The position numbers and the translations under genes are program-made. Shown here piece after piece: positions 38,026-54,641 of a DNA stretch of 64,000 bases. The DNA is taken from NCBI GenBank assembly GCA_023395595.1, contig JAEWYO010000070.1, positions 36,093 through 100,092 of the forward strand. The letters run 5' to 3'. Under the pieces are notes generated by a model. The model had not been told where the DNA came from and ran no database searches. It was given only the letters and a program-made list of their open reading frames with translations. Within the stretch, counting starts at the first letter, position 1. Every line of letters starts with the position of its first letter. This stretch comes from Bacillota bacterium. Lineage in GTDB: Bacteria > Bacillota > Clostridia > Christensenellales > CAG-138.

Positions 38026-38581
38026 ATACGTTTCCTGCCTTTTTATCCATTTTAACACAAGCACAAAAAACTGCAACCACTCCCGAACGGAAAACACGTC
38101 AAAATTCGAAATAAGTACAAACGCCGTCCAAATATTTGTGTTTTCGGGGAAAAGGTGTGTAAAATATTCGAAAACAGAAATAATAATAATATAAAATAGG
38201 TAAATACACATTGAATACGTGAAATAAAGTTACGAAAACAAATAAAATGGTATTGCAAACATCATTCTGCGGTGGTATTCTGAGGATACAAAATTTCGAA
38301 AAACAAATCAAAGGCGATTTCATATTAAATACGGAATCGAAATTAACACCTTATATCCAGAGCAAACACCAAACGATCGCTTCTCCAACACCCTGCGGTG
38401 AGACGCATGAGGGTCAGGTTTCGTTTACGCATCGATCAATCAACTTTAAAAGCGAACGCTCGCTTCCCAATATTGAACAATCATAGCGATTCAAATATCA
38501 AGAAGCCTTGAAGCAACATCGATTTATCGCCGCCGCGTGCGGCAGCGCATAAAGAAACAAAATGAGGAGGAAGAACACCAC

Positions 38582-40300
38582 ATGAAGAAGACCATTGCAA
38601 TGCTTCTGGTAACGATCATGGCTCTTGGCGTACTGGCAGGATGCGCGGCAACGGCGCCGGCACAACCCGCCAGCACGGAAGCCCCGGCAGAAGCGACCGC
38701 AGAAGCGACAGCCACTCCGGTTGTGGAAGATCTCAGCGAAACAGGCACACTCAAGCTCGCCTGGGTAGCCGGAATCGGCACAAACTCCATCTTTGAGTGC
38801 CCGTATACGGACATCAAGTGTCTCTACCCGAACATGCTCTTCAGCACGCTGGTCAAGGCGCAGCCCAACAGCACGTTCACGGGTGATCTCGCAACGGAAT
38901 ACACCGTTTCGGACGACGGCCTCGTCTACACCTTCAAGCTCAACCCCGCGGCGACGTTCTCGGACGGCACGGCTGTGACGGCGGACGATGTGGTGTTCTC
39001 GATCAATACCGCCATCGCGTATGAAAAATCCTGGGTCAAACAGTTCATGAAGAACATCGTCGGTGTCGCGGATGTTACCTCGGGTGCGGCAACGGAACTC
39101 GCCGGTGTGAAAGCAATCGACGCGAACACCGTTGAAATCACCGAAGGTATCGCCGACAACGCGCTGCTCTACGGCCTTGCGCTGACCTCGATTCTCCCGG
39201 CACACGCGTTTGAAGGCGTTGCGTACAATGACGTACCGACCAACGAAACCTTCTGGAGCAAACCGTATGGCTCCGGGCAATATGTGATCGATCAGGTCTC
39301 CTTCCCGAACTATTTCACGATGGTTCGCAACGAGAGCTACTTCGGTACACCCGCTGGCATCAAAAATGTTCTCTTCACCAGCTATGACGCAGGCGGCAAC
39401 GATGCCATCGTCAGCGCGGCAATCGCGGGCGACTTGGACTTTATCTTTGGCGACGCGGTTAACGACAGCAACACGATGAAGAACATCGTCGCGCAGAATG
39501 CCGACATGGTCAGCGCGGTTGTCCCGTCTTCCTATACGCGTCAGTTCCGTTTCAACCTGACGGGTTCCACGGATAACCAGTATAACTCGTTTGTGCAGGA
39601 TGTCCGCGTCCGCACCGCGTTTGAACTGCTCATGGACAAGGCGACCTGCGCCGCGTTCTATGGTGATCAGGCAAATGCCGCAATCACCATGATCAACCCG
39701 AACGACTCGCTCTTTGACACCTCGCTCACGCTCACGCCGTTCGACGTGGCCGCGGCAAAGGCACTGCTCGACGAAGCGGGCTATGACTACAGCAAGACTG
39801 TTCGTGTGCTCTACTACTATAGCGATCAGACCACGGCGGACATCATGGAAGTGCTGCGCCAGGGCTTTGAACAGGCAGGCGTGAAGTTTGAATCCTTCCT
39901 GGCTTCCGGCGATCTGGCAAGCATCATCTACACCCAGCGCAACTGGGACATGATCTACTCCGGCGGCGGCTCGGTTGCCGTTCCTGCGTATGGTTATGCG
40001 CTGCTCGTGCCGGATGGCGGCAATTGGGACTCCCTCTTTGGCAGCGTGGAAGAGCGCGCGGCGACGTATGGCGCTTCCTACAACCAGTTCCTGAGTGCGA
40101 AGGACGAAACAACGGCGAAATCCGCTGTGGTTGCTCTCCAGCAGCAGCAGGTCAAGGATAAATATGACATCGACCTCTACAACCTGAGCAAGATGGTTGC
40201 CTACAACGGCGCACACGTTGCGTTTGACACCTCGATTCTCGCAGGAGACTATCAGCAGTCCAAAGACTATAAGTTTGAAAACTGGAAGCTGATTGGTTGA
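38582..40300 (+). CDS. family-5 (Opp/Dpp-type) ABC transporter substrate-binding lipoprotein
   Basis: GAGGAGG RBS followed by ATG 38582. The signal peptide MKKTIAMLLVTIMALGVLAGC carries a lipobox. It is about 570 aa, with the size and layout of peptide/nickel/oligosaccharide binding proteins. Confidence 0.85.
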   Translation: MKKTIAMLLVTIMALGVLAGCAATAPAQPASTEAPAEATAEATATPVVEDLSETGTLKLAWVAGIGTNSIFECPYTDIKCLYPNMLFSTLVKAQPNSTFTGDLATEYTVSDDGLVYTFKLNPAATFSDGTAVTADDVVFSINTAIAYEKSWVKQFMKNIVGVADVTSGAATELAGVKAIDANTVEITEGIADNALLYGLALTSILPAHAFEGVAYNDVPTNETFWSKPYGSGQYVIDQVSFPNYFTMVRNESYFGTPAGIKNVLFTSYDAGGNDAIVSAAIAGDLDFIFGDAVNDSNTMKNIVAQNADMVSAVVPSSYTRQFRFNLTGSTDNQYNSFVQDVRVRTAFELLMDKATCAAFYGDQANAAITMINPNDSLFDTSLTLTPFDVAAAKALLDEAGYDYSKTVRVLYYYSDQTTADIMEVLRQGFEQAGVKFESFLASGDLASIIYTQRNWDMIYSGGGSVAVPAYGYALLVPDGGNWDSLFGSVEERAATYGASYNQFLSAKDETTAKSAVVALQQQQVKDKYDIDLYNLSKMVAYNGAHVAFDTSILAGDYQQSKDYKFENWKLIG

Positions 40301-40327
40301 TTTTCAAACCATAGAACACTAACATGG

Positions 40328-40366
40328 GTATGGCGGGCGCTGGTAAGTGTACCGGCCCCGCCATAC
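40328..40366 (+). other. intercistronic stem-loop after the SBP gene (possible attenuator or mRNA stabiliser)
   Basis: A 10-bp stem GTATGGCGGG/CCCGCCATAC encloses an inner 6-bp helix. No T-tract follows. Confidence 0.5.
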
Positions 40367-40393
40367 TACTGAACGAATGTTAGGAGGATGCGC

Positions 40394-41353
40394 GTGCTCA
40401 AATACTTTGGAAAACGACTGCTCTCGCTGCTGCCAAAGCTGCTGGTCATCTCCGCGATTATCTTTATCGGACTCCAGCTTTTGCCCGGTGATGCAATCAC
40501 AAGAACGGTTCCACCCGACATCTATGCGCAGATGACGACCGAACAGCTCGATGCTCTGCGCGAAAGTCTTGGGTTAAACGCGCCCCTGCCGGTTCAGTAT
40601 TTTCGCTGGCTGGGCAAGATGCTGCAAGGGGATCTTGGCTACAGCATCGTTTCCGGCAGCAATATCTCCGTCATGCTGGCGGCGCGCCTGCCTGCGACGC
40701 TGGAACTCGTTGGCCTCGGGTTGCTGGTTGCAACCGTGCTTGGTCTGATCCTCGGATACTTCTCCGCGGTCAAGCAAAACACACCGTTTGACTATCTTTG
40801 CACCACGTTTGGCATGCTCGGCGTCTCCGTGCCGGAGTTTTTTCTCGGCATGGTGGTGATCGTACTGTTTGCCATTCAGCTCAAGTGGTTCCCGACGGGC
40901 GGCCGCATGGCGCCGGGGAAAGAAGCGTTTTTTGACCGGATCGAATACCTTGTGCTGCCCGTGCTTTGCCTCGGCACCGCGTATATCGCGACCATTATGC
41001 GCTATACGAGAGGCTCCATGCTCGATGTACTCAACAAGGACTACATCACGACCGCGCGCAGCAAGGGAATCTCTGAAAACAAAGTGAATTTTCGCCACGG
41101 GTTTCGCAACGCGATTATACCTGTCATCGTCACCATCGTGTTCCGCCTGCCGATGCTGGTCGGCGGCACCGTGGTCATCGAAAGCGTGTTTAACTACCCC
41201 GGCATGGGAAACATGCTGCTTTCCGCAATCTCCGGTGGTGACATGCCTGTTGTGATGATTTCTACCTTTATTATCGCAATCGTCGTGCTGCTCTCCAGCG
41301 TATTGGCGGATTTGATTACCGCAATGCTCGATCCGCGAATCCGGCTGAACTGA
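40394..41353 (+). CDS. ABC transporter permease (DppB/OppB type)
   Basis: AGGAGG (40382-40387) followed by GTG 40394 gives (M)LKYFGKRLLSLLPKLLVIS, the canonical DppB N-terminus. ATG 40388 directly abuts the RBS. Confidence 0.85.
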   Translation: MLKYFGKRLLSLLPKLLVISAIIFIGLQLLPGDAITRTVPPDIYAQMTTEQLDALRESLGLNAPLPVQYFRWLGKMLQGDLGYSIVSGSNISVMLAARLPATLELVGLGLLVATVLGLILGYFSAVKQNTPFDYLCTTFGMLGVSVPEFFLGMVVIVLFAIQLKWFPTGGRMAPGKEAFFDRIEYLVLPVLCLGTAYIATIMRYTRGSMLDVLNKDYITTARSKGISENKVNFRHGFRNAIIPVIVTIVFRLPMLVGGTVVIESVFNYPGMGNMLLSAISGGDMPVVMISTFIIAIVVLLSSVLADLITAMLDPRIRLN

Positions 41354-41366
41354 CAGGAGGAATGGG

Positions 41367-42248
41367 ATGATGAGACAAAGCAGGCATTCAACCCGTCCGA
41401 GAGCCAGAAAGTCGAGTCTGGCAAAGCGGAATCTCTATAAGTTTTTTACGAATCGCATGGCGGTATTGGGCCTTTCAATCATACTGCTGATGATTCTTGC
41501 GGCGATTTTCGCCCCGCTGCTCTCGCCGTATTCACCGACAACGGTCGATCCGGCGAACCGGTATCTGCCGAGTTCTGCCGAGCACTGGTTGGGCACGGAT
41601 CAGCTCGGACGCGACCTGCTCACGAGGCTTTTGTACGGCGGGCGCGTCTCGATTTTCGTCGGCATGGTCGGCGCAATCTGCGCGGCGTTGGTCGGCAGCG
41701 TGCTCGGGTGCGTCGCGGGCTACTTCGGCGGCAAAGTGGATAGCGTCATCGTTTATATCTCGGAGATCTTCATGGTCTTTCCGCAGATCCTATTGGTGCT
41801 CATTCTCGTCGGCTTTGTGGGCCAGAGCCTGAAGAACCTGATCATCATCTTCACGGTCACCGGCTGGGCGAGCGTCTGCCGTATTGTGCGCAGCCGGATT
41901 CTCTCACTCAAAGAGGAGACGTTTGTGGAGAGCTGCCGCGCCAACGGCATTGGCGGGATGTCGATCATGTTTCGCCATATGCTGCCCAATACGATGGGCC
42001 CGATCGTGGTCAACATCACGCTCGCAACCGCAGGATTCCTGCTGCAAGAGTCTGCGCTTAGCTTTTTGAATATGGGCGTGCCGACCAGTATCCCGACCTG
42101 GGGTAACATCATCAACGCGGCGCGAAACATGAACGTCATTCAGAATTATCCGTTGATGTGGATTGCGCCCGGCGTGTGCATCTGCCTGTTTGTCCTTGGC
42201 GTCAACTTCTTTGGCGACGGGCTCCGGGACGTTCTGGACCCGACATAA
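41367..42248 (+). CDS. ABC transporter permease (DppC/OppC type)
   Basis: 293 aa, with an AGGAGG RBS. HWLGTDQLGRDLLTRLLYGGRVS is the typical OppC N-terminal motif. Confidence 0.85.
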   Translation: MMRQSRHSTRPRARKSSLAKRNLYKFFTNRMAVLGLSIILLMILAAIFAPLLSPYSPTTVDPANRYLPSSAEHWLGTDQLGRDLLTRLLYGGRVSIFVGMVGAICAALVGSVLGCVAGYFGGKVDSVIVYISEIFMVFPQILLVLILVGFVGQSLKNLIIIFTVTGWASVCRIVRSRILSLKEETFVESCRANGIGGMSIMFRHMLPNTMGPIVVNITLATAGFLLQESALSFLNMGVPTSIPTWGNIINAARNMNVIQNYPLMWIAPGVCICLFVLGVNFFGDGLRDVLDPT

Positions 42249-42266
42249 AAGGAGGGGGTGCGTAAG

Positions 42267-43277
42267 ATGGAACAAGATATGATTCTGCGGGTCAAGCACC
42301 TGCAAGTGAAGATTAAAGTAGGCCGGCGCATGGTTCACGCGGTCAACGACGTGAGCTTTGATCTCAAGCGCGGCAAAACGCTTGGCATCGTCGGCGAGAG
42401 TGGATGCGGCAAGAGCGTGACCGCACGCGCGATTATGCAGCTTTTGCCGAAGGCCGGCAATATTACAAAGGGCGCAATCACGTATTTCGGCAACGAAAAA
42501 CCGGTGGAGATCGCCTCCTGCAAGCGAAACAGCAAAAAGATTCGCAACATTCGCGGCGCGGATATTTCGATGATCTTCCAAGACCCGATGTCTGCGCTCA
42601 ACCCGGTCTACTCCATCGGCAGGCAGATTTCCGAGAATCTGCTGCAACACGAGCGTCTTTCCAAGAAAGAAGCGCGCGCGCGCGTGATCGAGATGCTCAA
42701 AGACCTTGGCATCCCGATTCCGGAGCAAAGATATGACGAATATCCCCATCAGTTCTCCGGTGGCATGCGTCAGCGCGTCATGATCGGCATTGCGATGATC
42801 TGCAACCCGGGCATTTTGATTGCGGACGAACCGACCACGGCGCTGGATGTCACCATTCAGGCGCAGATTCTGGAGCTGATGAAACGGGTACAGCAGCAGC
42901 ATGGTACATCCGTGATCCTCATTACGCACAACATGGGCATCGTGGCGGAAGCGTGCGACGACGTTGCGGTGATGTACATGGGGCGCGTGGTGGAATATGG
43001 CACGCTGGAGCAGGTGTTCAACCATCCGCTGCATCCGTATACCTGCGCGCTGATGCGCTCCGTTCCCGTGCTGGGCATCGGCAAGGACAAAAAGCTGGAG
43101 TCCATCAAGGGTTCCACGCCGGATGCTTCCATTGAGTTTACGCACTGCGAGTTTGCAGAGCGGTGCGATCATTGCACCCAGCGCTGCCTCGAAGGATTGC
43201 CGCAGGATCGCATCTTGCCGGATGGGCACCGCGTGCGCTGCTTCCGCTATGCCGAGGAGGGTGAGGCAAATGATTAA
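42267..43277 (+). CDS. ABC transporter ATP-binding protein (DppD/OppD type)
   Basis: Walker A is GESGCGKS and the signature is FSGGMRQR. The C-terminal oligopeptide-type extension carries Cys residues. AAGGAGGGGG RBS followed by ATG 42267. Confidence 0.9.
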   Translation: MEQDMILRVKHLQVKIKVGRRMVHAVNDVSFDLKRGKTLGIVGESGCGKSVTARAIMQLLPKAGNITKGAITYFGNEKPVEIASCKRNSKKIRNIRGADISMIFQDPMSALNPVYSIGRQISENLLQHERLSKKEARARVIEMLKDLGIPIPEQRYDEYPHQFSGGMRQRVMIGIAMICNPGILIADEPTTALDVTIQAQILELMKRVQQQHGTSVILITHNMGIVAEACDDVAVMYMGRVVEYGTLEQVFNHPLHPYTCALMRSVPVLGIGKDKKLESIKGSTPDASIEFTHCEFAERCDHCTQRCLEGLPQDRILPDGHRVRCFRYAEEGEAND

Positions 43278-44322
43278 TCAAACCAATGCAAACCCGCTCT
43301 TGAGCCTGCAGCACCTGCAAAAGTATTATCCCGTCACCGCCGGAACGTTCAAGAAGGTTGTGGGCTACGTTAAGGCGGTGGACGATGTTTCGCTCAACGT
43401 ATTCAAGGGCGAAACACTCGGCATCGTCGGCGAGTCCGGCTGCGGGAAGACGACGCTCGGCAAGTGCGTGGTGCGCCTGCATCAACCAACCGGCGGAAAG
43501 ATTTTGCTGCGTCAGGAAGACGGCGAGATGAAAGATTTGCTCGCGCTGAGCAAGGCGGAGAGCTTCTCGGCAAGAAAGCGCATCCAGATGGTGTTTCAAG
43601 ACCCCTATGCGTCGCTCAACCCCAGCATCAATATCTACAACGCGTTTGACGAGCCGATGCGCATCCACGGCCTTGGTAACAAGGCGCAGCGTCGGGAAAT
43701 TATCGCCAATATGCTTGAGACGGTGAATCTTCAGCCCGACTATATGTATCGCTTCCCGCACGAGTTCTCCGGCGGGCAGCGGCAGAGAATCTGCATCGCA
43801 AAAGCGCTTGCTATGGGACCTGAGATCATCGTTTGCGACGAACCGGTCTCCGCGCTGGATGTTTCGATTCAGGCGCAGATCATGAACCTCATGCGCGAAT
43901 TGCAAGCGCAATACAACCTGACGTACCTCTTCATTGCGCATGATCTTTCGGTGGTGCAGTATATGTCCGACCGGATCGCAGTGATGTATCTGGGCAAGGT
44001 GGTCGAGCTTGCCTCGGCGGACGAGCTTTGCGCGTGCAAGGCGCATCCATACAGCGAAGCGCTGCTCTCCGCGGTGCCGATCCCCGTGATTGGCGCGAAG
44101 AAGAACCGCATCATCCTCAAAGGCGACGTGCCGTCTCCGGTCAACCCGCCGTCGGGTTGCCGGTTTCATCCGCGCTGCCCGAAGGCAACGCCGCTGTGCG
44201 CAGAGAAGGAACCGCAGCTCCTGCCGATGCAGGGGAAAGCGGATCACCTCGTTGCGTGCCACTATGCGGGGTGTGACTGCGAAACGGAGATTCTGTGCAA
44301 CTGTGCGGATGAAAACGAATAA
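43270..44322 (+). CDS. ABC transporter ATP-binding protein (DppF/OppF type)
   Basis: Re-called start at ATG 43270 (MINQTNANPLLSLQHLQKYY), overlapping the upstream stop. Walker A is GESGCGKT and the signature is FSGGQRQR. Confidence 0.9.
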   Translation: MINQTNANPLLSLQHLQKYYPVTAGTFKKVVGYVKAVDDVSLNVFKGETLGIVGESGCGKTTLGKCVVRLHQPTGGKILLRQEDGEMKDLLALSKAESFSARKRIQMVFQDPYASLNPSINIYNAFDEPMRIHGLGNKAQRREIIANMLETVNLQPDYMYRFPHEFSGGQRQRICIAKALAMGPEIIVCDEPVSALDVSIQAQIMNLMRELQAQYNLTYLFIAHDLSVVQYMSDRIAVMYLGKVVELASADELCACKAHPYSEALLSAVPIPVIGAKKNRIILKGDVPSPVNPPSGCRFHPRCPKATPLCAEKEPQLLPMQGKADHLVACHYAGCDCETEILCNCADENE

Positions 44323-44365
44323 GCGTAGCACATACTGTGATTTCACGAGAAAAAGGAATAGGACG

Positions 44366-47113
44366 ATGGAATGGATCACTGAGGGGTTCGAAGGCTTTTC
44401 CACGGGAACCATGGAAAACGGCGGACAGAACCTCTATGTTTCAAAAAAAGGGATTTTGCAGCGTATCTTTCACTATGACGTGAACGCGGACGGGCACGCC
44501 GATCTGCTCTTTGCCTGTAGCCAGAGCATGTATGAGCGCCCGCCGCTCTATGTTTTTGAGCAACTGCCGCAGCAGAACGAACACCGCGAGCTGCCCTCCG
44601 GCGGCACGTATGACGGCGTGTTTGCAGATCTTTCCGGCAGCGGGTACGACGATCTCATCGTCGCTTGCCAGCATGACGGAACACACTCCGACGTGACCGC
44701 GTTTGTCTATTTTGGCGGCCCGGAAGGGCTCACAGAGCGCTATCGCATGGAGCTGCCCGCGCCGTCGAGCGTCGGCGTTGCGGTCGGGGACTTCAATGGC
44801 AACGGCAAAAAGGACATCGCGTTTCTTTCCAACGAGAAGCTGCGCGTGTTTGAGCAGGAGGAGCGCGGCTTTTGTCCGGCGAGTTTTACGGACTATCCAC
44901 TCAACGCAAAGGTGATCGTTGCCGCCGATCTCGACGGCGATGGTTATTGCGATCTGTATTTTAAGGACACGGAAGGCAAGACCGGCATCCTCTTTGGCAG
45001 CGCAAGCGGCTTTGAGGCATCCGGCATTGTCTGGATCAATCAGGACGCCGTACTCGTCAAAGAAGGCGAAGGAAGCACGACGGCGGGACAGATTCACGCC
45101 TATGTCCAGTGGCGTCCATGCGTCGTCACCATCGATCAAAAACAATATCTCTTCAGCCGTGAGAAAGATCAGGCCGTGTTTTATACCTGCGGACGAGACC
45201 GCAAAATACAGCGCGCCTTTGCGTTGGACTGCCCGGGCGCGGCGGCGGTTGTGTCCACCGATCTCACCAGAAACGGGTTTGACGATCTGGCGTTCGCGGT
45301 GTTTCAAGATCGCGATCAGGAACACGATTGTAAGGTCTACCTCGGCGGCAAAGAAGGCTTTTCGGAATCGCGCGTGACGCGGATTCCCGTCAAGGGCGCA
45401 ATCAATGTGACGGTTGCGGATTTGGGCACGCCGACGCTGATCATCTGCCGCAGCGGAGAGCGGATTGAGCGCGAAACGCTCTCGCCCGCGTTCCGTTTTG
45501 CGCCGGATGGAACGGCGCAGCAGGTGTTTTCGATTCCCGCCGGGGACTGTACGCGGATTCTCGCGGGCAGGCCGGGCGGCAGCGCAACGCACGACACCGT
45601 TGTTTCGCTCAACCATGAGCTCAACCGCGCGCAGGGCGGTGAGCAGGTGTTTGTCTATCTTGGCGGCGTGGACGGCTATTTGCCGGATCGCCGGCTGGAA
45701 TTCCCCGCGCATTCCGCAGTCGATGGTGCCATGTGCGATTTTTTCGACACGGGTCGGGTCGATGTGCTGGTTTGCAATTGCTTTGAGGACGCGCTGCATC
45801 TTGACGACGGATGCTATCTCTATCCGCAAAGTGAAACCGGCTTTTCCGGGCAGAAGAAGGTCGTGTTTCCGACGCTGCACTGCTCCGGCTCTGCGATTGG
45901 AGACTTTCGCAAATCCGGCTTTCTGGATATCGCGTTTGGTGGTTTTTGCAACCGCGAAATCCTGATTTTCCACGGTAGCGAGACGGGATATTCCGCCGAG
46001 AACTTCTCCCGCGTGGTATTGGGGCCGGACGACGGCACCTATCACCCGGACAAGTATGGCGAAGGGCAGGACGTTTACATGAGCGTCCCGCCGGATGAGC
46101 GCGCGGTGACCACGGAGTTTGGCCAGGTGCGCTGGATGCTCTCGGCAGACTTCAACTGCGACGGCTGGCCGGATCTGTTTATCTCGGAGATCACTGGCCC
46201 GCGCTGCTTCATCCTCTGGGGCGGGCCGGAAGGCTTTTCCACCAAGCGGATGACAACGCTGCTCACCGATGGGGTCGCATCTGCAAACGTGGCAGATCTC
46301 AACGGCAACGGTTGGCCGGATCTGATCCTAGCAAGCCACCAGTCCACGAAGAAGAATGTAAAGTATGAATCGTATGTGACCGTCTATTGGGGTGGGCCGG
46401 ACGGCTATCAGGAGAACCGCAGAATGCAACTGCCCGTCTCCTGCGCAAACGCCGTCACCGTTGGCGACTACAACGGAAACGGCAGCCTCGACATCTACGC
46501 GACTTCCTACAACAACGGCAGAACGAGGGATTTGCTCTCATACCTCTACAAAGGCGACCACGGTAACTATAGCATCAGGAATGTGCAGTATCTATTCAAT
46601 CACTCCGGCTCCGGCTGCGTCTCCGGCGATTTCAACGGGGACGGATACACCGACCTTGCCGTCGCCTGCCACAAGGAATACGGCAACCACTGCTCGCATT
46701 CCTTCATCTACTGGGGTGGACCAGACGGGCTATCGGAAGATCGAAAGACGATCTTGCCGACGGTTGGCCCGCACGGGATGTCCTCGGTCGATCCGGGCAA
46801 TATCCTCGATCGCGGAGACCGGGAGCGCTACACGTCCGAAGTCAAGCACCTACCGGAAGGCAGTGTGCTGTGCGCGATTGCCTGGGAAGGGGTTTGCACC
46901 TCGACCAGCTGGGTGGAACTTTCGGTACGCGCGGCGGACAGCGAAGAAGCGATTCTTGCAAGCGACTGGCAGCGCGTGGAGAACGGAGAAGACCTGACGC
47001 AGCGCAACCTGGGCGGCGTCGTGCAATATCAAATCGCGCTGTGCGCAAAATGCGCCTGCGGAACGCCGCGGATCGAGCGGGTTCGAGTCACGTATGAACG
47101 GAGGAATATTTAA
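44366..47113 (+). CDS. 915-aa cytoplasmic FG-GAP/VCBS-repeat (beta-propeller) protein of unknown function
   Basis: Re-called start at ATG 44366 (MEWITEGFEGF); there is no signal peptide. About 10-14 repeats carry Ca-binding-like DxNGDGxxD loops, for example DFNGNGKKDIAF, DLDGDGYCDLYF, DLNGNGWPDLIL, DYNGNGSLDIYA and DFNGDGYTDLAV. Recurring GGPEG(F/L)/GGPDG(Y/L) turns are also present. Confidence 0.7.
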   Translation: MEWITEGFEGFSTGTMENGGQNLYVSKKGILQRIFHYDVNADGHADLLFACSQSMYERPPLYVFEQLPQQNEHRELPSGGTYDGVFADLSGSGYDDLIVACQHDGTHSDVTAFVYFGGPEGLTERYRMELPAPSSVGVAVGDFNGNGKKDIAFLSNEKLRVFEQEERGFCPASFTDYPLNAKVIVAADLDGDGYCDLYFKDTEGKTGILFGSASGFEASGIVWINQDAVLVKEGEGSTTAGQIHAYVQWRPCVVTIDQKQYLFSREKDQAVFYTCGRDRKIQRAFALDCPGAAAVVSTDLTRNGFDDLAFAVFQDRDQEHDCKVYLGGKEGFSESRVTRIPVKGAINVTVADLGTPTLIICRSGERIERETLSPAFRFAPDGTAQQVFSIPAGDCTRILAGRPGGSATHDTVVSLNHELNRAQGGEQVFVYLGGVDGYLPDRRLEFPAHSAVDGAMCDFFDTGRVDVLVCNCFEDALHLDDGCYLYPQSETGFSGQKKVVFPTLHCSGSAIGDFRKSGFLDIAFGGFCNREILIFHGSETGYSAENFSRVVLGPDDGTYHPDKYGEGQDVYMSVPPDERAVTTEFGQVRWMLSADFNCDGWPDLFISEITGPRCFILWGGPEGFSTKRMTTLLTDGVASANVADLNGNGWPDLILASHQSTKKNVKYESYVTVYWGGPDGYQENRRMQLPVSCANAVTVGDYNGNGSLDIYATSYNNGRTRDLLSYLYKGDHGNYSIRNVQYLFNHSGSGCVSGDFNGDGYTDLAVACHKEYGNHCSHSFIYWGGPDGLSEDRKTILPTVGPHGMSSVDPGNILDRGDRERYTSEVKHLPEGSVLCAIAWEGVCTSTSWVELSVRAADSEEAILASDWQRVENGEDLTQRNLGGVVQYQIALCAKCACGTPRIERVRVTYERRNI

Positions 47114-47114
47114 T

Positions 47115-47993
47115 ATGAAACTCGGTTTTTTTCCGGCGCTGGGTACGCCGCTGGACACAGACGGTAATTTACTCAAACAGAGCTTTACGAAGCAAATTGA
47201 GCACCAGATGCTAGCCGGGGCTTCCGGCCTTCTGGTGATGGGTTCGATGGGCATCGAGCCGTATATTCGCAACAGCGTCTACCCGAGCGTCGCGCGCTGC
47301 GGCGTGGAGGCGGCAAAAGGGCAAGCGCCCGTGCTGGTCGGCGTGATGGACACCTGCATCAGCCGCGTACTGGATCGCGTGGATGCGCTCAAGGATCTAC
47401 CCATCGACGGCGTGGTCTCCACCGTGCCGTATTACAACGCGATGAACCAAGCGCAAGTAATCAAGTTTTATACCGCGCTGGCGGACAGCAGTAAGTTCCC
47501 GGTCTATCTGTACGACCTCGCGGTGGTGACCAAGACGCGCACCATGCCGGAGACGGTGATGAAGCTCTGGAAACACCCGAACATTCGCGGCATCAAGACG
47601 GGAAATCTCGTGACCGCGCGATTGCTGCTCAACAGCCCGGAGAAACCGGAAGGGTTTGACGTGGTCTATAGCGATCTGGATACGTTCGACGTGGCGTATC
47701 AATACGGGATTGATAAAAACCTAGACGGCATGTTCGCCTGCACGCCAAAGACGGTGAAGAAGATGTACACAGCTCTCAGCGCACAGCGTTTTTCGGAAGC
47801 GAGCGCATGTCTGGACGCAATCGTCAATCTTCGCGACCTGTTTGTGGAGAGCGGCAGCGTGCTCGGCGCGTTTACCTACGCGATGAACGACCTTGGATAC
47901 GAAGGTTCGTTCCATATGGACTACGAAACCTTGCCTGCGGCAATCTACCACGAGAGAGTAACAGCGTTTTTGAAACAGATGGGCGAGCTGTAA
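47115..47993 (+). CDS. DapA/NanA-family class I aldolase (N-acetylneuraminate lyase-like)
   Basis: GGAGGAA RBS followed by ATG 47115, one nt after the upstream stop. SGLLVMGSMGIEPY and NIRGIKTGN (candidate Schiff-base Lys) fit the dihydrodipicolinate synthase / sialate lyase fold. Confidence 0.7.
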   Translation: MKLGFFPALGTPLDTDGNLLKQSFTKQIEHQMLAGASGLLVMGSMGIEPYIRNSVYPSVARCGVEAAKGQAPVLVGVMDTCISRVLDRVDALKDLPIDGVVSTVPYYNAMNQAQVIKFYTALADSSKFPVYLYDLAVVTKTRTMPETVMKLWKHPNIRGIKTGNLVTARLLLNSPEKPEGFDVVYSDLDTFDVAYQYGIDKNLDGMFACTPKTVKKMYTALSAQRFSEASACLDAIVNLRDLFVESGSVLGAFTYAMNDLGYEGSFHMDYETLPAAIYHERVTAFLKQMGEL

Positions 47994-48017: not shown

Positions 48018-48485
48018 ATGATTCTTGACACACTCGATCACGCGGTACTGTACGCGCCGCTTTCCAACGGTCTGAAGGAAGCGTTTCTCGCGCTGGAATC
48101 CGTTCAGACGCAGCCGTATGTCACCGGCAGGCTTGACGTCGTTCCCGAAAGCCTGTTTCTGTTGAAAAACGCCTATAGCCCGAAGCCCTATGGCGCGGAA
48201 AGCCTGCTGGAAGCGCATCAGGAATACATCGACGTGATGTACATGGTGGAAGGTGAAGAGCTGATCTACGTCAAACCCACCGCGCGGCTCCGGCATGTGG
48301 AGAAACCGTATGATCCGGCGATCGATGCGCTGCTGACCCCGCCGGAAGGCGACGAGACCGCGGTGCATCTCACACAAGGACAGTTTCTCGTGCTGTTTCC
48401 GCAGGACGCGCATTGTCCGGCAAACCGCATCAGCGGATGCGACGCGGTCAAGAAAATCATTTGCAAAGTACGAGTGGCGTGGTAA
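48018..48485 (+). CDS. YhcH/YjgK/YiaL (DUF386) family protein
   Basis: 155 aa. EAHQEYIDVMYMVEGEELIYV and VLFPQDAHCP are typical of this cupin-like family, which is commonly linked to sialic-acid loci. Confidence 0.75.
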   Translation: MILDTLDHAVLYAPLSNGLKEAFLALESVQTQPYVTGRLDVVPESLFLLKNAYSPKPYGAESLLEAHQEYIDVMYMVEGEELIYVKPTARLRHVEKPYDPAIDALLTPPEGDETAVHLTQGQFLVLFPQDAHCPANRISGCDAVKKIICKVRVAW

Positions 48486-48528
48486 AAGACACCGCGCAAT
48501 CGCGACTGACACGAGAGAGGGATTATTG

Positions 48529-49461
48529 ATGATATCCTGCACAGAGTTTATTCCGGCCTATAGCGCGCTCTTCACGTTTCTGGAAAACAGCTATGGCGTA
48601 CAAGAGGTGCATCGCTTCTGGGAAGACCTGTTCGACCCGAAGAAAAACGGGCCCACCCACTTGCTGGAGGAAGAACTCAGCAAGAACGGCATCACCGGCT
48701 GCTGGAACTACTGGACGCACACGCTCAACGAAGAGGCGGCGGATTTTGACCTGTATCTCGACGAGGAGAACGGCTGGTATCTTTGCCGGATGCGCCATTG
48801 CCCGTCCAAAGGGCGGCTGCTTGCGATACCACATATCACGCCATATCACGACTATTGCAGCCATTGCGACCTCTATCGCCGGACAGTGGAGCAATACGGA
48901 CTCGAATACGTATACAACTTTACGGGGTGCAGCGAAGCTTCCTGCGAACTGCTGATCTATGACCCCAAGAAGTTTCAGGGCACGCTCAAGGTTTCGCCAA
49001 AGACGCGCGTGATGAAACGCAATGCGAGCGACAACCGCTATTTTCACAAGGACTTTCATCTTTCGTTAAACGCTGGCGTAGAGTATCTGGGCACGCGTTT
49101 TGGCACAGAGGCGGTTGAGCGTTTTTTGCAAGAGTATGCGTTTGCCTACTATGCGCCTTTGATCAAACGGATCAAGAGCGATGGTATCGCGCCGCTGGAA
49201 GAATACCTGATCTCCACTTATGCGGCGGAAGAAGCGGTAGACGAGATCACCGTCATTCGCGAGGGCGAAGGTTTGCGCGCGCTCGTACGCGAATGCCCCG
49301 CTGTGCGGCATATCCGCACAAGCGGTAGAGACGTATCCCGCTGGTATCGCCTTACGACTCAAACCGTCATGGGAACGATTGCGTTGGCGTCCGGATTTCA
49401 ATTTACGATGCTGGCGTATGATGAACAAACTGGTCGCGCGGAATACACTTTTTCAAAATAG
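48529..49461 (+). CDS. hypothetical protein with an internally duplicated domain of about 150 aa; N-terminal copy Cys-rich
   Basis: GAGAGAGGGA RBS followed by ATG 48529. The N-half carries CRMRHCPSKG, YCSHCDLY and GCSEASCELL. The C-half keeps only RECPAVRHI. I recognise no family with confidence. Confidence 0.5.
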   Translation: MISCTEFIPAYSALFTFLENSYGVQEVHRFWEDLFDPKKNGPTHLLEEELSKNGITGCWNYWTHTLNEEAADFDLYLDEENGWYLCRMRHCPSKGRLLAIPHITPYHDYCSHCDLYRRTVEQYGLEYVYNFTGCSEASCELLIYDPKKFQGTLKVSPKTRVMKRNASDNRYFHKDFHLSLNAGVEYLGTRFGTEAVERFLQEYAFAYYAPLIKRIKSDGIAPLEEYLISTYAAEEAVDEITVIREGEGLRALVRECPAVRHIRTSGRDVSRWYRLTTQTVMGTIALASGFQFTMLAYDEQTGRAEYTFSK

Positions 49462-49509
49462 GGAAAGACAATCTGCGGGCAGCAACGCCCGCAAATGAGG
49501 GCGGATACA

Positions 49510-50973
49510 ATGGCGTATTTTCTGGCGATTGATTTGGGCACAACCGGCTGCCGTAGCATGGTGTTTGACGATGCGCTGCGCCTTTTTGGCTCGGACTATA
49601 TCGAATACGGCCTGATCACGCCGAAACCAAACTGGTATGAACAGGACGCCAACCTTTGGTGGAACATCGCCTGCCAAACGATGAAAGCCGCGATCGCCGC
49701 ATCCGGCATATCCGGCAACGAGATCGCCTCGCTGAGCGTGAGTTCACAGGGCATCAGCATCGTTCCCGTGGATCGCGCTTGGCAGCCACTTCGAAATGCG
49801 CTGAGCTGGATGGACACCCGTGCGGAGGAAGAGGAACAGCGTCTGATCGCCGAGTTAGGTCAGGAGGAGACGTTTTCACGCACCGGAAAGCGCATCGCCG
49901 CAACCTACACGCTGCCAAAGCTGCTTTGGTTGCAGCAAAACGAACCGGATGTGTTTGCAAAAGCGGATTATTTTCTGATGCCACTGGATTTTTTAACGGC
50001 GAAGTTGACAGGACGCGCTGTAACGGACCCTTCTATGGCATCCGGCACGCTGTTTTACGATATGCGAGCAGGTTGTTGGCACAGACCGACGCTGGCGCGA
50101 TATGGAATCAACGAAAGCAAACTCGCGCGTATTTTGCCAAGCGGGAGCGTCGCGGGAACGGTCTTGCCGGAGGTTGCCGCGCTATTGGGGCTATTGAGCG
50201 ATTGCCTTGTCTGCGTCGGCGCGCAGGATCAGCGCTGCGCTTCGCTCGGCGCGGGACTTTCGCCCGGGGTGGTGACGGTTTCATTGGGCACGGCGGCGGC
50301 GGTCTGCAAGCTCTGTGCGCGCTTTGCGCCGGAGGACGGCATGCATGTCGGCTGGTCGCCGTACGTGTTCGCCGGAGAATGGGTGAGCGAGAGCGTGGCA
50401 GGTGCGGCGGGCGCAAGCTTGCGCTGGCTGCGAGATAGCATCTATCAAGAAATGACCTATGACACGATCAATTGCGAGGCAGAGATTGCGCGTGAAAGAG
50501 GCAGCGAAGTTGCGTTTTTACCGTATCTTTGCGGGCCGGGGTTTCCGCGCTTTGATCCTGCATCGACAGGGTGTTTCCACAAAATAACGATGGCGACACA
50601 GCGCGGAGACCTTGCACTTGCTGTCATGCGCGGAGTCGTTTTCCAGATCCGTGAAATATTAGAATCGATGGACGCAAATGCCGAGACGAAACGATTGGTA
50701 CTCTTCGGCGGCGGAGTGAAGAGCACGCTTTGGCGGCAATTATTTGCGGACGGTCTTAACATGCCGGTCTACATTCCGAGCGAAGCAGAAACCGCAGGAA
50801 TCGGAGCTGCCATTCTGGCTGGATTGGGTGCTGGTCGGTTCCAAAAGGAAAATCTACCTCAGATTCGCTTTTCAGGCGTGAGCATGCCGTCGGAAAAAGC
50901 CAAGGAAGAAAACGAACACTACATGAAGTTTCGCGCACTGGAGCAAGTTCTGCAATCCGGCTACGATTCATAA
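49510..50973 (+). CDS. FGGY-family carbohydrate kinase (xylulokinase-like)
   Basis: GAGGG RBS followed by ATG 49510 (MAYFLAIDLGTTGCRS). The C-terminal motif is FGGGVKSTLWRQLFADGLNMPV. Confidence 0.85.
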   Translation: MAYFLAIDLGTTGCRSMVFDDALRLFGSDYIEYGLITPKPNWYEQDANLWWNIACQTMKAAIAASGISGNEIASLSVSSQGISIVPVDRAWQPLRNALSWMDTRAEEEEQRLIAELGQEETFSRTGKRIAATYTLPKLLWLQQNEPDVFAKADYFLMPLDFLTAKLTGRAVTDPSMASGTLFYDMRAGCWHRPTLARYGINESKLARILPSGSVAGTVLPEVAALLGLLSDCLVCVGAQDQRCASLGAGLSPGVVTVSLGTAAAVCKLCARFAPEDGMHVGWSPYVFAGEWVSESVAGAAGASLRWLRDSIYQEMTYDTINCEAEIARERGSEVAFLPYLCGPGFPRFDPASTGCFHKITMATQRGDLALAVMRGVVFQIREILESMDANAETKRLVLFGGGVKSTLWRQLFADGLNMPVYIPSEAETAGIGAAILAGLGAGRFQKENLPQIRFSGVSMPSEKAKEENEHYMKFRALEQVLQSGYDS

Positions 50974-51031
50974 AGCCATAGACAGATTCAATCTGCGCAA
51001 GAGTAGATCAAACAGCATATGAGGTAGGCAC

Positions 51032-52195
51032 ATGAACGCCATCATCCACGCAAATCTGGTTCTGGAAGACGAAATTCTGTTCGACGGAGCAATCCTGTTT
51101 GACAACGGGAGCATCGTCTCATTTGGCGCGACGGAAACGCTGGAGATTCCCGGCGGCATCGAGAAGATGGATGCCTGCGGGAAATACGTCGGCCCGGGGT
51201 TTGTAGACATCCACTGCCACGGCGGCAACGGATTCCTGTTTGACAACGACCCGGAGCAGGCGGCGGCGCATTTTCTCTCGCACGGGGAAACCACGGTGCT
51301 TGCGACGCTCTATTACAACCTTTCCTATGATGAAATGCTGGCGGCAATCCGGCGCGTGCAAGAGGCGATGCAAAAACCGGGAGCAGCGCGCGCCATCGGC
51401 GGCATCTATATGGAAGGCCCCTATATGAACCCGAAATACGGCGCGTCGCCGGAGAAGAACCGGTGGCGCGGGCCGATCGATTTCGCCCAAGCGGATGCGT
51501 TAATACAGTCAGCGGGAGAGGACGTATTGGTCTGGGCGATTGCACCGGAGAGGGATGGCGTGTCTTCGTTTGTGGCCGCCGCGAAAGCCGCAAATAAAAG
51601 CGTGCGGTTTGCTGTTGGTCACAGCGAGGCTACGCCGGCACAGATCGCGGCGCTCAAGCAATACGACTTGATCATTCAAACACACTGCACCAACGCAACG
51701 GGTGCACCTTGCGCGGTCGGCGGTACACGTGCCTGCGGGCCGGATGAAGCGTGCTTTTATGACCCGGATATATATGCGGAGGTCATCTGTGATTCCTGCG
51801 GGATTCATGTGCATCCCGATATGCTGCGCTTGATTCACCGGATCAAAGGCGATGACCGGGTGGTGTTAATTACCGATAGTTTCGTCTCCAGCGAACAACC
51901 ACCGGAGAACCTGAAGCACATTACGGATCTACATTTTGACGCAAGCGGCGGGCTCTGCGGCAGTAAACTCACGCTGGACGTCGCCTGCCGCAACATGATG
52001 CGGCATACGGGAATCGGCATTTGTCAGGCGTTCCGGTTTGCGAGCCTGAACCCCGCGCGTGCGGTTGGGCTGGACGCAGACGTTGGCAGCATCGTCATCG
52101 GCAAAAAAGCCAATCTTGTGCTTGTGGACGACGACATGCGCCTGCACGGCGTATGGATGGAAGGGAAATGGATGGGCGCACGGCAGACAGAGTAA
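51032..52195 (+). CDS. nagA: N-acetylglucosamine-6-phosphate deacetylase-like amidohydrolase
   Basis: 387 aa. PGFVDIHCHGG, YMEGPYMNP, VGHSEAT and the QTHCTNA motifs correspond to the NagA metal and substrate motifs. Confidence 0.75.
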   Translation: MNAIIHANLVLEDEILFDGAILFDNGSIVSFGATETLEIPGGIEKMDACGKYVGPGFVDIHCHGGNGFLFDNDPEQAAAHFLSHGETTVLATLYYNLSYDEMLAAIRRVQEAMQKPGAARAIGGIYMEGPYMNPKYGASPEKNRWRGPIDFAQADALIQSAGEDVLVWAIAPERDGVSSFVAAAKAANKSVRFAVGHSEATPAQIAALKQYDLIIQTHCTNATGAPCAVGGTRACGPDEACFYDPDIYAEVICDSCGIHVHPDMLRLIHRIKGDDRVVLITDSFVSSEQPPENLKHITDLHFDASGGLCGSKLTLDVACRNMMRHTGIGICQAFRFASLNPARAVGLDADVGSIVIGKKANLVLVDDDMRLHGVWMEGKWMGARQTE

Positions 52196-52229
52196 AACCC
52201 GTGCGTTTGGAAAGGGATAAAGGAAGATC

Positions 52230-53567: not shown

Positions 53568-53649
53568 ACAAAGTTCAGCGGAATGTCACGCTTGCGGGGG
53601 AAATATTTCCGCCGGGCGATGAAATATTGGAAAAAGAAGAGAAGAGAAA

Positions 53650-54618: not shown

Positions 54619-54641
54619 TCCTTTCACACAAGCACACACAG

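Follow-up and report, generated by a model that had tools for sequence, protein, structure and literature searches.

A predicted cytoplasmic FG-GAP/VCBS propeller protein in a clostridial sugar operon, a candidate carbohydrate-active enzyme

Proteins built of FG-GAP/VCBS beta-propellers are near-reflexively taken to be extracellular binding modules. What, then, is a protein of this kind with no recognisable leader doing inside a bacterial sugar operon? The question is raised by a 64,000-nucleotide stretch of a Clostridia genome (Bacillota bacterium, Christensenellales; assembly GCA_023395595.1, contig JAEWYO010000070.1, positions 36,093 to 100,092; hereafter the window), in which a 915-aa FG-GAP protein is encoded between an ABC importer and an aldolase. 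The protein is a member of a large, widespread family and not a peculiarity of the window genome, and the occurrence of such a leaderless family in sugar loci runs counter to the usual view of these propellers. The best explanation, and on balance a probable one, is that it is an uncharacterised cytoplasmic carbohydrate-active enzyme that takes the first intracellular step on an imported substrate; we infer both its enzymatic activity and the nature of that substrate. If it is an enzyme, it would represent a new catalytic family in the carbohydrate-active repertoire, help to account for a number of catabolic clusters from gut and soil that are still unassigned, and offer a handle on the acidic and amino-sugar glycans eaten by Christensenellaceae and their relatives.

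The FG-GAP gene and its operon

The gene begins at ATG 44366 and ends with the TAA at 47111-47113 on the plus strand, encoding 915 aa plus stop with the N-terminus MEWITEGFEGFSTG (ORF reading and translation). The genes and signals around it are as follows.

36781..38211, minus strand: divergent ROK-family (NagC/Mlc-like) regulator gene (Pfam ROK; NagC/Mlc models match below their cut-offs)
38537..44322, plus strand: Opp/Dpp-type ABC importer, whole (domain and synteny analysis)
38537-40300, plus strand: SBP_bac_5 lipoprotein of the importer
40388-41353 and 41367-42248, plus strand: the two importer permeases
42258-43277 and about 43264-44322, plus strand: the two importer ATPases
44353..44363, plus strand: Shine-Dalgarno-like purine-rich stretch AAGGAATAGGA, with AAGGA 9-13 nt 5' of ATG 44366 (direct sequence reading)
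44366-47113, plus strand: the FG-GAP gene
47115..47993, plus strand: DHDPS/NanA-family class I aldolase or dehydratase (Pfam DHDPS; below the dapA and nanA equivalog cut-offs)
48018..48485, plus strand: YhcH/YjgK/YiaL (DUF386) protein of an anomerase-like family (Pfam DUF386; TIGR00022 passed)
48526..56019, plus strand: remaining catabolic gene string, whole
48526-49461, plus strand: 311-aa protein without known domain
49495-50973, plus strand: FGGY kinase
51032-52195, plus strand: NagA-like amidohydrolase
52230-53567, plus strand: neutral-ceramidase-N-like protein
53650-54618, plus strand: divergent NagB-like protein
54643-56019, plus strand: MFS transporter

A longer ORF can be read from TTG 44090, overlapping the ATPase gene that ends at 44322, but its 92-codon extension is Arg-rich and non-hydrophobic (maximum Kyte-Doolittle value of 0.33 over 12 residues). 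There is no in-frame start further upstream that would add a signal peptide. In L006 and L007, two Christensenellaceae loci with the same synteny, in-frame stops lie 5 and 19 codons, respectively, 5' of the same ATG, and no alternative start was found between stop and ATG in either locus. The ATPase stop and the FG-GAP ATG are separated by 43 nt, and the FG-GAP stop lies 1 nt before ATG 47115, which is the true aldolase start by alignment with four homologues. The ribosome-binding site of the aldolase gene (GGAGGA at 47100-47105) falls within the 3' end of the FG-GAP gene, to which the aldolase gene is translationally coupled. The original prediction that the FG-GAP gene is an operon member is borne out by the two short gaps and by conserved linkage in other genomes. 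A promoter/terminator scan, weak evidence either way, found no convincing plus-strand intrinsic terminator between the genes of the string. The ROK regulator gene is syntenic in L006 and L007, and the gene set at 48526..56019 recurs in L006, L007, L080, L085 and L087. The aldolase carries the conserved GIK lysine (alignment), and among the called genes of the operon there is no other glycosidase or lyase candidate.

The gene content recalls the nan cluster (SatABCD, NanA, YhcH/NanQ, NagA, NagB) in its SBP_bac_5 importer, DHDPS-family aldolase, YhcH "openase", and NagA-like and NagB-like proteins; SatABCD (ST3) is an SBP_bac_5-type ABC importer for Neu5Ac (PMC8461474). A canonical sialic-acid cluster was rejected on model scores of 42 versus a cut-off of 382 for nanA, 64 versus 160 for N-acetylneuraminate anomerase (63.8 for the DUF386 gene before rounding) and 35 versus 237 for nagB, and on a binding protein that is not SatA-like. 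NanE and NanK were not identified among the operon's annotated genes. We know of no described nan cluster with an FG-GAP protein.

Repeat architecture, fold and a candidate site

The 915-aa protein belongs to the FG-GAP/VCBS beta-propeller superfamily, matching Pfam FG-GAP_3 (PF13517) over 7 stretches (E 5e-38, 129.9 bits, gathering cut-off 26.9) and Pfam FG-GAP (PF01839) over 4 (E 7e-22, 77.3 bits, gathering cut-off 22.1). By eye we counted twelve DxNxDGxxD-type loops, 8 of them canonical and 4 degenerate, together with about 8 GG(P)xG turns; an automated motif pattern missed every loop and caught just 4 turns (5 matches when overlaps are counted). The full-length AlphaFold2 model is all-beta (pLDDT 88.5, pTM 0.84), and its secondary structure contains about 14-15 four-strand blades, then a 97-aa beta-sandwich. 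We read it as two propellers followed by a C-terminal beta-sandwich, the blade count likewise coming from the secondary-structure string; this agrees with the earlier claims of repeats "enough for two propellers" and of a C-terminal segment of about 90 aa. The regions of the protein, all on the plus strand, are listed here.

44366..44464, plus strand: N-terminal segment, aa 1-33 (GFEGFSxGxxxNGGQNLYVS...QR), among the family's most conserved parts and standing where a leader would be
44456..45706, plus strand: N-terminal propeller region, about aa 31-447, with 7-8 blades (secondary structure, pLDDT)
45707..46810, plus strand: C-terminal propeller region, about aa 448-815, with six canonical FG-GAP blades (full model, and a separate model of aa 436-915 with pLDDT 86)
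46508..46774, plus strand: candidate active or ligand site, aa 715-803, with Y715, R721, D722, S747, H769, K770, H775, S779 and H803 (conservation, loop-class analysis)
46820..47110, plus strand: C-terminal beta-sandwich, aa 819-915, with conserved E820, Y822, S824, R855, W868, Y888 and R902 (model and conservation)

Conservation is unevenly spread over these regions. Residues F11, G14, G20, N22, Y24, S26, G29, Q32 and R33 of the N-terminal segment are at least 97% identical across 78 sequences, and tblastn matches to the family begin at query residue 1-8, mostly 1-3. The N-terminal propeller is the less conserved half (mean column identity 0.36-0.47 for aa 211-420) and contains a loop of low model confidence at aa 220-250 (pLDDT). 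The C-terminal propeller, whose seventh blade is probably completed by other strands in the model, is the conserved core of the family (mean identity 0.6-0.71 for aa 600-810), and for most of the distant members the representative search scored highest over positions 590-914.

The original prediction had proposed to look for conserved acidic or Arg clusters at the propeller face, and a conserved polar cluster is present on one face of the second propeller. Among 41 representatives with 23-40% identity, R721, H769 and H775 never vary, and Y715 and H803 are kept in at least 90%. By loop-class analysis the candidate-site residues belong to the last two blades of this propeller and lie in the loops that join strands 2-3 and 4-1; what is conserved in the 1-2 and 3-4 loops is almost entirely structural Gly, Asp or Pro. 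In VCBS propellers the DxDxDG motif sits in loop AB (PMC8023676), and by this strand/loop motif register the conserved polar residues would form the ligand (top) face. H769, H775 and H803 are a possible metal site, and the N-terminal peptide and C-terminal sandwich may lie near the candidate site. No known catalytic motif was found in the protein.

Searching the full-length model against the PDB with Foldseek was uninformative, retrieving only the multi-propeller scaffolds DDB1 and CPSF160 at TM about 0.2, and aa 436-915 were therefore modelled and searched separately. The best match of this half is the aldos-2-ulose dehydratase 4a7y (E 4.6e-10, TMq 0.47), only marginally above integrins (TMq 0.40-0.47); given this marginal lead and the modest TM-scores, the match means "VCBS propeller" and not "dehydratase". 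Integrins and the BBSome and KICSTOR scaffolds make up most of the structural neighbours. No sequence similarity to any characterised enzyme was detected: PDB searches with the single sequence and with family profiles matched integrin FG-GAP repeats, CRTAC1 and a "secreted esterase", and nothing else.

The protein could also be a propeller without catalytic activity, serving inside the cell as a lectin, scaffold, chaperone or sensor. It would then bind the imported sugar or organise the enzymes of the pathway; integrins, PVL lectins and tachylectins use the same fold for binding. In favour of this, most of the FG-GAP/VCBS propellers that have been characterised are binding modules, the structural neighbours are for the most part integrins and scaffolds, and a known catalytic motif is not found. 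We nevertheless consider this unlikely: the cluster of His, Arg, Tyr and Lys is kept down to 23% identity, the gene has long been retained in catabolic operons, with translational coupling, its paralogue expansions are CAZyme-like, and no role in the sugar catabolism of bacteria is known for a cytoplasmic lectin of 915 aa.

Integrin alpha shares the repeat family (Pfam FG-GAP and FG-GAP_3) and the DxNxDGxxD calcium-type loops, and the family profile matches an integrin propeller with E about 1e-5. Integrins, however, are heterodimeric receptors for adhesion that are anchored in the membrane, face the outside of the cell and combine a single propeller with thigh and calf domains, whereas the window protein is bacterial, leaderless and part of a catabolic operon, and has about twice as many blades. 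The signal peptide, single seven-bladed propeller with thigh/calf and C-terminal transmembrane helix of integrin alpha are not present in it.

The original prediction also drew an analogy with sialidases and other known GH and PL propellers, for which no support emerged: no BNR/Asp-box and no sequence match to a solved GH or PL propeller were found. Neither BNR nor BNR_2, as in GH33/GH181, matches the protein at E up to 1 (Pfam). GH181 (Amuc_1547) was considered because of what we took to be its "propeller plus beta-sandwich" architecture. It was rejected, being a six-fold BNR-type propeller related to GH33 (PMC10067855).

Cellular location, family and gene neighbourhoods

No signal peptide, membrane segment or anchor domain was found in the 915-aa protein by hydropathy and domain reading. 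The maximum Kyte-Doolittle value is 1.15 over 19 residues in the whole protein and 0.38 over 10 residues in its first 45, upholding the earlier statement that it has no hydrophobic leader; the operon's binding protein, in contrast, has a lipoprotein leader (...LAGC). The protein contains 27 Cys, and none of the Sec, Tat or lipoprotein signals or cell-wall anchors of a secreted or surface FG-GAP adhesin. It is thus predicted to be cytoplasmic. The gene makes a leader impossible in about 75 of the 84 family members examined, so that the family is leaderless by default, and leader-like extensions occur in four or five of the 84, all from the PVC group (Planctomycetes, Lentisphaerae, Kiritimatiellae; L044, L054, L071 and L078 among them). 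FG-GAP proteins are usually extracellular, and these few PVC-group relatives could be taken to suggest that the window protein is exported by a non-classical route or an unrecognised signal, to serve as an adhesin at the cell surface or as an extracellular lyase, as would be typical of FG-GAP proteins. This is very improbable given the lack of a hydrophobic N-terminus, membrane segment or anchor domain, the number of Cys, conserved N-terminal 33 residues that start at Met1 in nearly all members with stops just upstream, and the absence of leaders from all Firmicutes members. As a separate observation, the leaders of the few PVC-group members are reminiscent of enzymes acting after outer-membrane import.

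The family comprises proteins of about 900-970 aa from more than ten phyla, forming more than 100 clusters at 50% identity and annotated only as "VCBS/FG-GAP repeat protein" or "VCBS repeat-containing protein". It is concentrated in polysaccharide-degrading phyla and includes tandem paralogues, four of them in one Monoglobaceae genome, a CAZyme-like distribution. Longer relatives carry no catalytic partner domain, their extras being only PD40, HEAT, DUF4215, TSP3 or MopE-type repeats. In the literature on FG-GAP/VCBS proteins, carbohydrate enzymes and nonulosonic acid catabolism, we found no description of this family.

Recurrent neighbours are sugar ABC importers, DHDPS, YhcH/DUF386, 2-hydroxyacid and GFO/IDH/MocA dehydrogenases, sulfatases and deacylases. 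Across 79 loci, counts are 16 for CUT1 permeases, 10 each for DHDPS, 2-hydroxyacid dehydrogenase (often adjacent) and GFO/IDH/MocA, 7 for sulfatase, and 6 each for DUF386 and DegT. At 88% identity the whole operon is conserved (L006, L007). At 50-61% identity the FG-GAP gene occurs with an SBP5 ABC importer, DHDPS and DUF386 in other gene orders (L001, L008, L009, L029, L088), or with the ABC importer only in L010, a locus cut at its end. DUF386 directly follows the FG-GAP gene at 43-44% identity (L018, L023), and at 41% identity, in Paenibacillus agaridevorans (L074), the neighbours are DUF386, DHDPS, an AstE-type deacylase, a PLP enzyme and GFO/IDH/MocA. Linkage of homologues to sugar genes thus extends into Paenibacillus and down to 34% identity, where L080 has its FG-GAP gene inside the same set of kinase, NagA-like, aldolase, DUF386, ceramidase-like and NagB-like genes. 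In Paenibacillus relatives, a gene for a giant surface-anchored BNR_2 protein precedes the FG-GAP gene. In L086 and L087, the catabolic module has no FG-GAP gene within 10 kb, which fits the FG-GAP protein as a substrate-specific feeder step.

Proposed function and enzymatic precedents

Most likely, the members of the family are sugar-processing enzymes of a new, intracellular kind. In the pathway we propose, the Opp-type ABC importer would deliver the substrate, and the FG-GAP protein would act on it as the first intracellular step, with the ligand face of the second propeller (H769, H775 and H803 with R721, Y715 and K770) as its working site. Its reaction would be a cleavage or elimination at a glycosidic or C-O bond, either hydrolytic or a metal-assisted beta-elimination, and its product a cyclic 2-keto-3-deoxy sugar acid of the ulosonic type, probably an N-acylated amino sugar acid. 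The YhcH-like protein would open or anomerise this product, the DHDPS-type aldolase would split it into pyruvate and an amino sugar, and the FGGY kinase, the NagA-like and ceramidase-like amidases and the NagB-like deaminase would complete the route. Since the contexts of many members contain neither aldolase nor DUF386, the ulosonic-acid reading may fit only one subfamily.

The closest structural precedent is aldos-2-ulose dehydratase (AUDH; EC 4.2.1.110, Phanerochaete chrysosporium, 4a7k/4a7y/4a7z), which likewise has a VCBS/FG-GAP-type seven-bladed propeller, followed in its chain by two cupin domains and a lectin domain. It is reportedly intracellular and about 900 aa long, with a sugar substrate and a zinc site in the propeller (Claesson et al. 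2012). The window protein instead reads as two propellers and a small beta-sandwich, with no cupin or lectin domain (Pfam) and a cupin-like partner only as the separate DUF386 gene, and belongs to a bacterial catabolic operon where AUDH belongs to fungal secondary metabolism. The family profile does not match 4a7k, 4a7y or 4a7z at E up to 10, and the similarity is of fold only.

A rather unlikely but appreciable alternative is that the protein is an AUDH-like metal-dependent dehydratase, hydratase or isomerase that acts on a monosaccharide and not on a glycosidic bond, converting a sugar or aldonate brought in by the importer, or else a derivative of anhydro or unsaturated type, to a 2-keto-3-deoxy acid for the aldolase; the separate cupin-like YhcH, directly adjoining the FG-GAP gene in L018, L023 and L088, would then correspond to AUDH's fused cupin isomerase. 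Beside the top Foldseek rank of AUDH, the recurrent SDR, aldo-keto reductase and Amidohydro_2 genes of L001, L085, L086 and L088 resemble a route that leads from a sugar by way of its lactone to the aldonate. A dehydratase is required for such a route, and none of the enolase or IlvD type is present among the called neighbours in these four loci; SBP_bac_5 systems can also carry monosaccharide acids, as SatABCD does Neu5Ac (PMC8461474). Against this, up to four tandem paralogues and the links to sulfatases and large extracellular BNR_2 or beta-helix enzymes are more typical of linkage-specific glycan cleavers, a core dehydratase would be expected to stay in the modules of L086 and L087, and sequence similarity to AUDH is not found.

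Returning to a glycan-processing enzyme, the fullest version of this reading, which we advance tentatively and hold to be possible, not probable, makes the protein the founding member of a new CAZyme family. Such an enzyme would be a double FG-GAP propeller working in the cytoplasm, probably in a metal-dependent way, and would cleave glycosides of N-acyl-amino ulosonic or keto-deoxy sugar acids or generate such acids. With it would begin an undescribed catabolic route (YhcH-like, DHDPS-like, FGGY, NagA-like, ceramidase-like and NagB-like proteins and the 311-aa protein) acting on bacterial or host acidic glycans in gut Clostridia, Paenibacillus and many polysaccharide-degrading phyla.

Two lyase families offer further comparison. 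PL22 Ogl is a cytoplasmic seven-bladed propeller lyase of non-FG-GAP type with a His-coordinated metal, acting on oligosaccharides from an ABC importer and feeding a keto-deoxy sugar-acid pathway; its downstream enzymes differ from those of the window, and the likeness is a functional analogy only. PL11 lyases are secreted, eight-bladed, single-propeller proteins. PL11 and PL22 chains are absent from the PDB sequence matches of the single sequence and family profile and from the best 50 Foldseek matches. In cluster analysis, the propeller of PL11 rhamnogalacturonan lyases (YesW/YesX) connects directly to the VCBS core, and AUDH is counted among VCBS members (PMC8023676). The PL11 lyases show the superfamily to be capable of beta-elimination on sugars. 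The original description of a cytoplasmic FG-GAP propeller in a catabolic operon as "atypical" has to be softened, as the VCBS/FG-GAP supercluster already includes AUDH, with PL11 lyases connected to its core.

The FG-GAP gene and its operon

The FG-GAP gene runs on the forward strand from ATG 44366 to a TAA at 47111-47113 and encodes 915 residues (N-terminus MEWITEGFEGFSTG), with AAGGA 9-13 nt 5' of the ATG. A mechanical ORF list holds a longer reading frame from TTG 44090, which overlaps the ATPase gene before it at its 3' end (stop 44322); the extension is arginine-rich and lacks a hydrophobic stretch. In the syntenic Christensenellaceae loci L006 and L007 (88% identity), in-frame stops lie 5 and 19 codons before the same ATG. 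Kyte-Doolittle hydropathy over 19 residues reaches at most 1.15 anywhere in the protein, which contains 27 cysteines; in contrast, the solute-binding protein of the operon carries an obvious lipoprotein leader. The low hydrophobicity, together with the nature of the TTG 44090 extension, bears out the original prediction that there is no signal peptide. The gene was also predicted to be an operon member, and the spacing agrees: it follows the ATPase gene by 43 nt, and its stop codon lies 1 nt ahead of ATG 47115, the true aldolase start by alignment of four homologues, which is preceded by GGAGGA at 47100-47105.

Genes of the operon, in order of position
1: ROK regulator, divergent
2: SBP_bac_5 binding protein
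3: two Opp-type permeases
4: 42258-44322, forward strand, two ATPases
5: FG-GAP gene
6: DHDPS-family aldolase
7: YhcH/DUF386 protein
8: 48526-49461, forward strand, 311-aa protein, no known domain
9: FGGY kinase
10: NagA-like amidohydrolase
11: 52230-53567, forward strand, neutral-ceramidase-N-like protein, 445 aa
12: 53650-54618, forward strand, divergent NagB-like protein, 322 aa
13: MFS transporter

Because all enzymes of the operon score under their NCBIfam equivalog cut-offs, a canonical nan, nag or xyl cluster can be ruled out. Neither Pfam nor NCBIfam gives a match for the Cys/His-rich 311-aa protein, of which 496 homologues exist; in all contexts examined it lies in the same catabolic clusters, with DHDPS, FGGY, NagA-like, ceramidase-like, NagB-like, SDR, aldo-keto reductase and Amidohydro_2 neighbours, making it a second uncharacterised family in the pathway. 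For the 445-aa protein, the match to the neutral ceramidase model is limited to the N-terminal part of that model, and the 322-aa protein has a weak likeness to NagB (35 bits versus a cut-off of 237). Both are kept with the cluster in five other loci (L006, L007, L080, L085 and L087), and their roles may be those of a second amidase and of a deaminase or isomerase that handle an unusual amino sugar. Given a start at ~43264 (picked by eye), the second ABC ATPase gene would share about 14 nt with the first; the longest ORF call for it, from 43123, is probably too long.

Predicted architecture and conserved residues

Pfam identifies FG-GAP_3 (E 5e-38) and FG-GAP (E 7e-22) in the protein and nothing else notable, and NCBIfam returns only a short domain-level match. 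Reading the sequence by eye gives twelve DxNxDGxxD-type loops and about eight GG(P)xG turns (a motif regex matched four turns and zero loops), in keeping with the many loops and GGP turns noted originally. From an alignment of 25 family sequences, AlphaFold2 gives a confident, all-beta model (pLDDT 88.5, pTM 0.84), and a separate model of residues 436-915 is likewise confident (pLDDT 86). As read from the secondary-structure string of the model, two propellers are followed by a beta-sandwich, which fits the propellers and C-terminal segment proposed before.

Predicted domains
Residues about 31-447: first propeller region, 7-8 four-strand blades, several of them with degenerate calcium loops
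Residues about 448-815: second propeller region, six canonical FG-GAP blades
Residues 819-915: C-terminal beta-sandwich

The first region includes a low-confidence excursion at residues 220-250, and in the model the six blades of the second are probably closed by other strands.

PDB sequence searches with the protein and family profiles give hits to integrin alpha repeats (E about 1e-5), to CRTAC1 and to a “secreted esterase”, and to nothing else. Full-length Foldseek searching gives only generic multi-propeller scaffolds; with the C-terminal half, aldos-2-ulose dehydratase (AUDH, 4a7y) ranks first (E 4.6e-10, TMq 0.47), with integrins, BBSome, KICSTOR, Bap1 and LGI1 close behind. AUDH is an intracellular sugar-transforming enzyme of the same superfamily, and the match is a precedent for such an enzyme among VCBS propellers. 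VCBS propellers include AUDH, TcB and PVL lectins, with PL11 lyases next to the core (PMC8023676). The Foldseek result is best read as “VCBS propeller”; it is no proof of a closer kinship with AUDH than shared membership of the superfamily. The sialidases of GH33 and GH181 are ruled out, since no BNR repeats are found in the FG-GAP protein.

Among 78 family sequences from a genome scan, conservation peaks in residues 1-60 and 600-810 and is lowest at 211-420. Once the Gly, Asp and Pro that serve the repeat structure are left out, the invariant positions comprise N22, Y24, S26, Q32 and R33 in an N-terminal peptide, Y715, R721, H769, H775, S779 and H803 in the last two blades, and E820, Y822, S824, R855, W868 and Y888 in the C-terminal domain. 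Under a stricter comparison, of 41 representatives that share only 23-40% identity, R721, H769, H775, S824 and Y888 are still invariant, and N416, Y715, H803, R816, R855, W868 and Q887 are kept at 90% or more.

In integrin-type propellers, the ligand-binding face is made by the 2-3 and 4-1 loops. In the second propeller, the repeat register places conserved polar residues in these loops, while what is conserved in the 1-2 and 3-4 loops is almost entirely structural; the register is anchored on the calcium loop, which in VCBS repeats is loop AB (PMC8023676). Three His cluster with an Arg, a Tyr and a Lys in a pair of neighbouring blades, which is more suggestive of a catalytic or metal site than of a packing surface. 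It seems unlikely that the protein is a non-catalytic binding or scaffold protein.

Family distribution and localisation

A word-indexed search finds 455 relatives, of which the best 120 are nearly all full-length and mostly 900-940 aa. An exhaustive profile search finds 2311 representatives at E 1e-30 or better, with a shared core at positions 590-914, and more than 100 clusters at 50% identity have the same 900-970 aa layout. The genome scan contains 334 encoded relatives, from Christensenellaceae, other Clostridia, Monoglobaceae and Paenibacillus as well as Armatimonadota, Caldilineaceae, Dehalococcoidia, Planctomycetes/Phycisphaerae, Latescibacterota, Lentisphaerae/Victivallales, Kiritimatiellae, Verrucomicrobiota, Gemmatimonadota and Spirochaetia. 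What was originally seen is real, holds in all its details and is wider than one genome: the protein is not an oddity of its host, and its exact sequence is already in a public collection. Database names for the family are only “VCBS repeat-containing”, “FG-GAP repeat domain-containing” or “hypothetical”; we found no description of it in the literature searched and no functional name in the databases consulted.

In about 75 of the 84 family genes examined, a stop codon sits just a few codons ahead of the conserved start, making a leader impossible there. That the FG-GAP protein of the operon reaches the surface by unconventional export is highly improbable. Signal-peptide or lipobox-like extensions precede the conserved start in four or five members from the PVC group (Planctomycetes, Kiritimatiellae and Lentisphaeria; L044, L054, L071, L078 and perhaps L052), of which the first four would be periplasmic versions in diderms. 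A protein that is cytoplasmic in monoderms and sometimes periplasmic in diderms is the pattern expected for enzymes acting on already imported oligosaccharides.

Genomic neighbourhoods and proposed role

The link to sugar genes is conserved and outlasts gene rearrangement; the co-occurrence with aldolase and YhcH genes raised in the original prediction is seen at 50-61%, 41% and 34% identity. At 50-61% identity, one order is FG-GAP, SBP5, ABC importer, DHDPS, DUF386, and another is SBP5, ABC importer, DHDPS, 311-aa protein, Amidohydro_2, FG-GAP, DUF386, GH36. At 43-44% (L018 and L023), DUF386 directly follows FG-GAP. In Paenibacillus agaridevorans (41%), the gene lies amid DUF386, DHDPS, AstE-type deacylase, PLP enzyme, GFO/IDH/MocA, aldo-keto reductase, GDSL esterase and CUT1 ABC genes, and at 34% (L080) a paralogue lies within the same kinase, NagA-like, aldolase, DUF386, ceramidase-like and NagB-like set.

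Commonest neighbours of FG-GAP genes in all 79 loci
CUT1 sugar permeases: 16
DHDPS: 10
D-2-hydroxyacid dehydrogenase, often adjacent: 10
GFO/IDH/MocA: 10
Sulfatase: 7
Opp-type ABC: 7
DUF386: 6
DegT aminotransferase: 6

YhcH is described in PMC8461474, citing Kentache 2021, as a cytoplasmic metalloprotein that hands open-form N-acetylneuraminate to the aldolase. The pairing of YhcH with DHDPS implies a cyclic 2-keto-3-deoxy sugar acid as intermediate. Acylated amino groups on it are implied by the amidases and the deaminase-like enzyme, as well as by the PLP, DegT and deacylase genes present at other loci. Between the importer and the YhcH/DHDPS pair, no large protein but the FG-GAP protein lacks an assignment, and the window operon encodes neither another glycosidase nor another lyase. 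We therefore lean, from context and conservation, towards the FG-GAP protein being the enzyme that would liberate or generate this intermediate from the imported substrate, by glycoside hydrolysis or metal-assisted beta-elimination at the conserved His, Arg, Tyr site. A dehydratase or hydratase of the AUDH kind, with a monosaccharide or aldonate as its substrate, is possible, if doubtful; in its favour, SDR, aldo-keto reductase and lactonase-like genes recur without a recognisable dehydratase seen beside them. The fold is known and catalytic VCBS propellers are already known, so the protein is not categorically new; the proteins make a good candidate for a new family of intracellular carbohydrate-active enzymes.

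Reverse searching from the 311-aa protein finds the catabolic module with the ABC importer in L085, and without an FG-GAP gene within 10 kb in L086 and L087; FG-GAP thus behaves like an accessory feeder step, not a core pathway enzyme. A Monoglobaceae MAG (L028, 75-12787) carries four tandem paralogues, the last two of them separated by a D-2-hydroxyacid dehydrogenase, an array resembling an expansion of linkage-specific enzymes. Two Paenibacillus species encode a giant SLH-anchored BNR_2 (sialidase-like) protein of 1600-1800 aa directly upstream of the FG-GAP gene (Paenibacillus sp. MBLB4367, L004/L016, 5051-9934; P. contaminans, L089, 4410-9932), and one of the two species has another FG-GAP paralogue nearby, along with a GDSL esterase and a sulfatase. 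The P. contaminans orthologue of the FG-GAP protein, from a cultured strain, is WP_113032512.1. The Caldilineaceae genes (L033, L034, L036, L043 and L046) lie in a different conserved neighbourhood of 2-hydroxyacid dehydrogenase, SBP_bac_1/CUT1 ABC, M81 MlrC-like peptidase, DegT aminotransferase and transketolase-like genes, which hints at a glycopeptide or amino-sugar substrate. In three gut metagenome contigs (L001-L003, 1-3100), tyrosine integrase, NikA-like, TnpV and ParM-like genes lie a few kb upstream of the cluster of FG-GAP, ABC importer, DHDPS and DUF386 genes, a cluster that may be carried on a mobile element.
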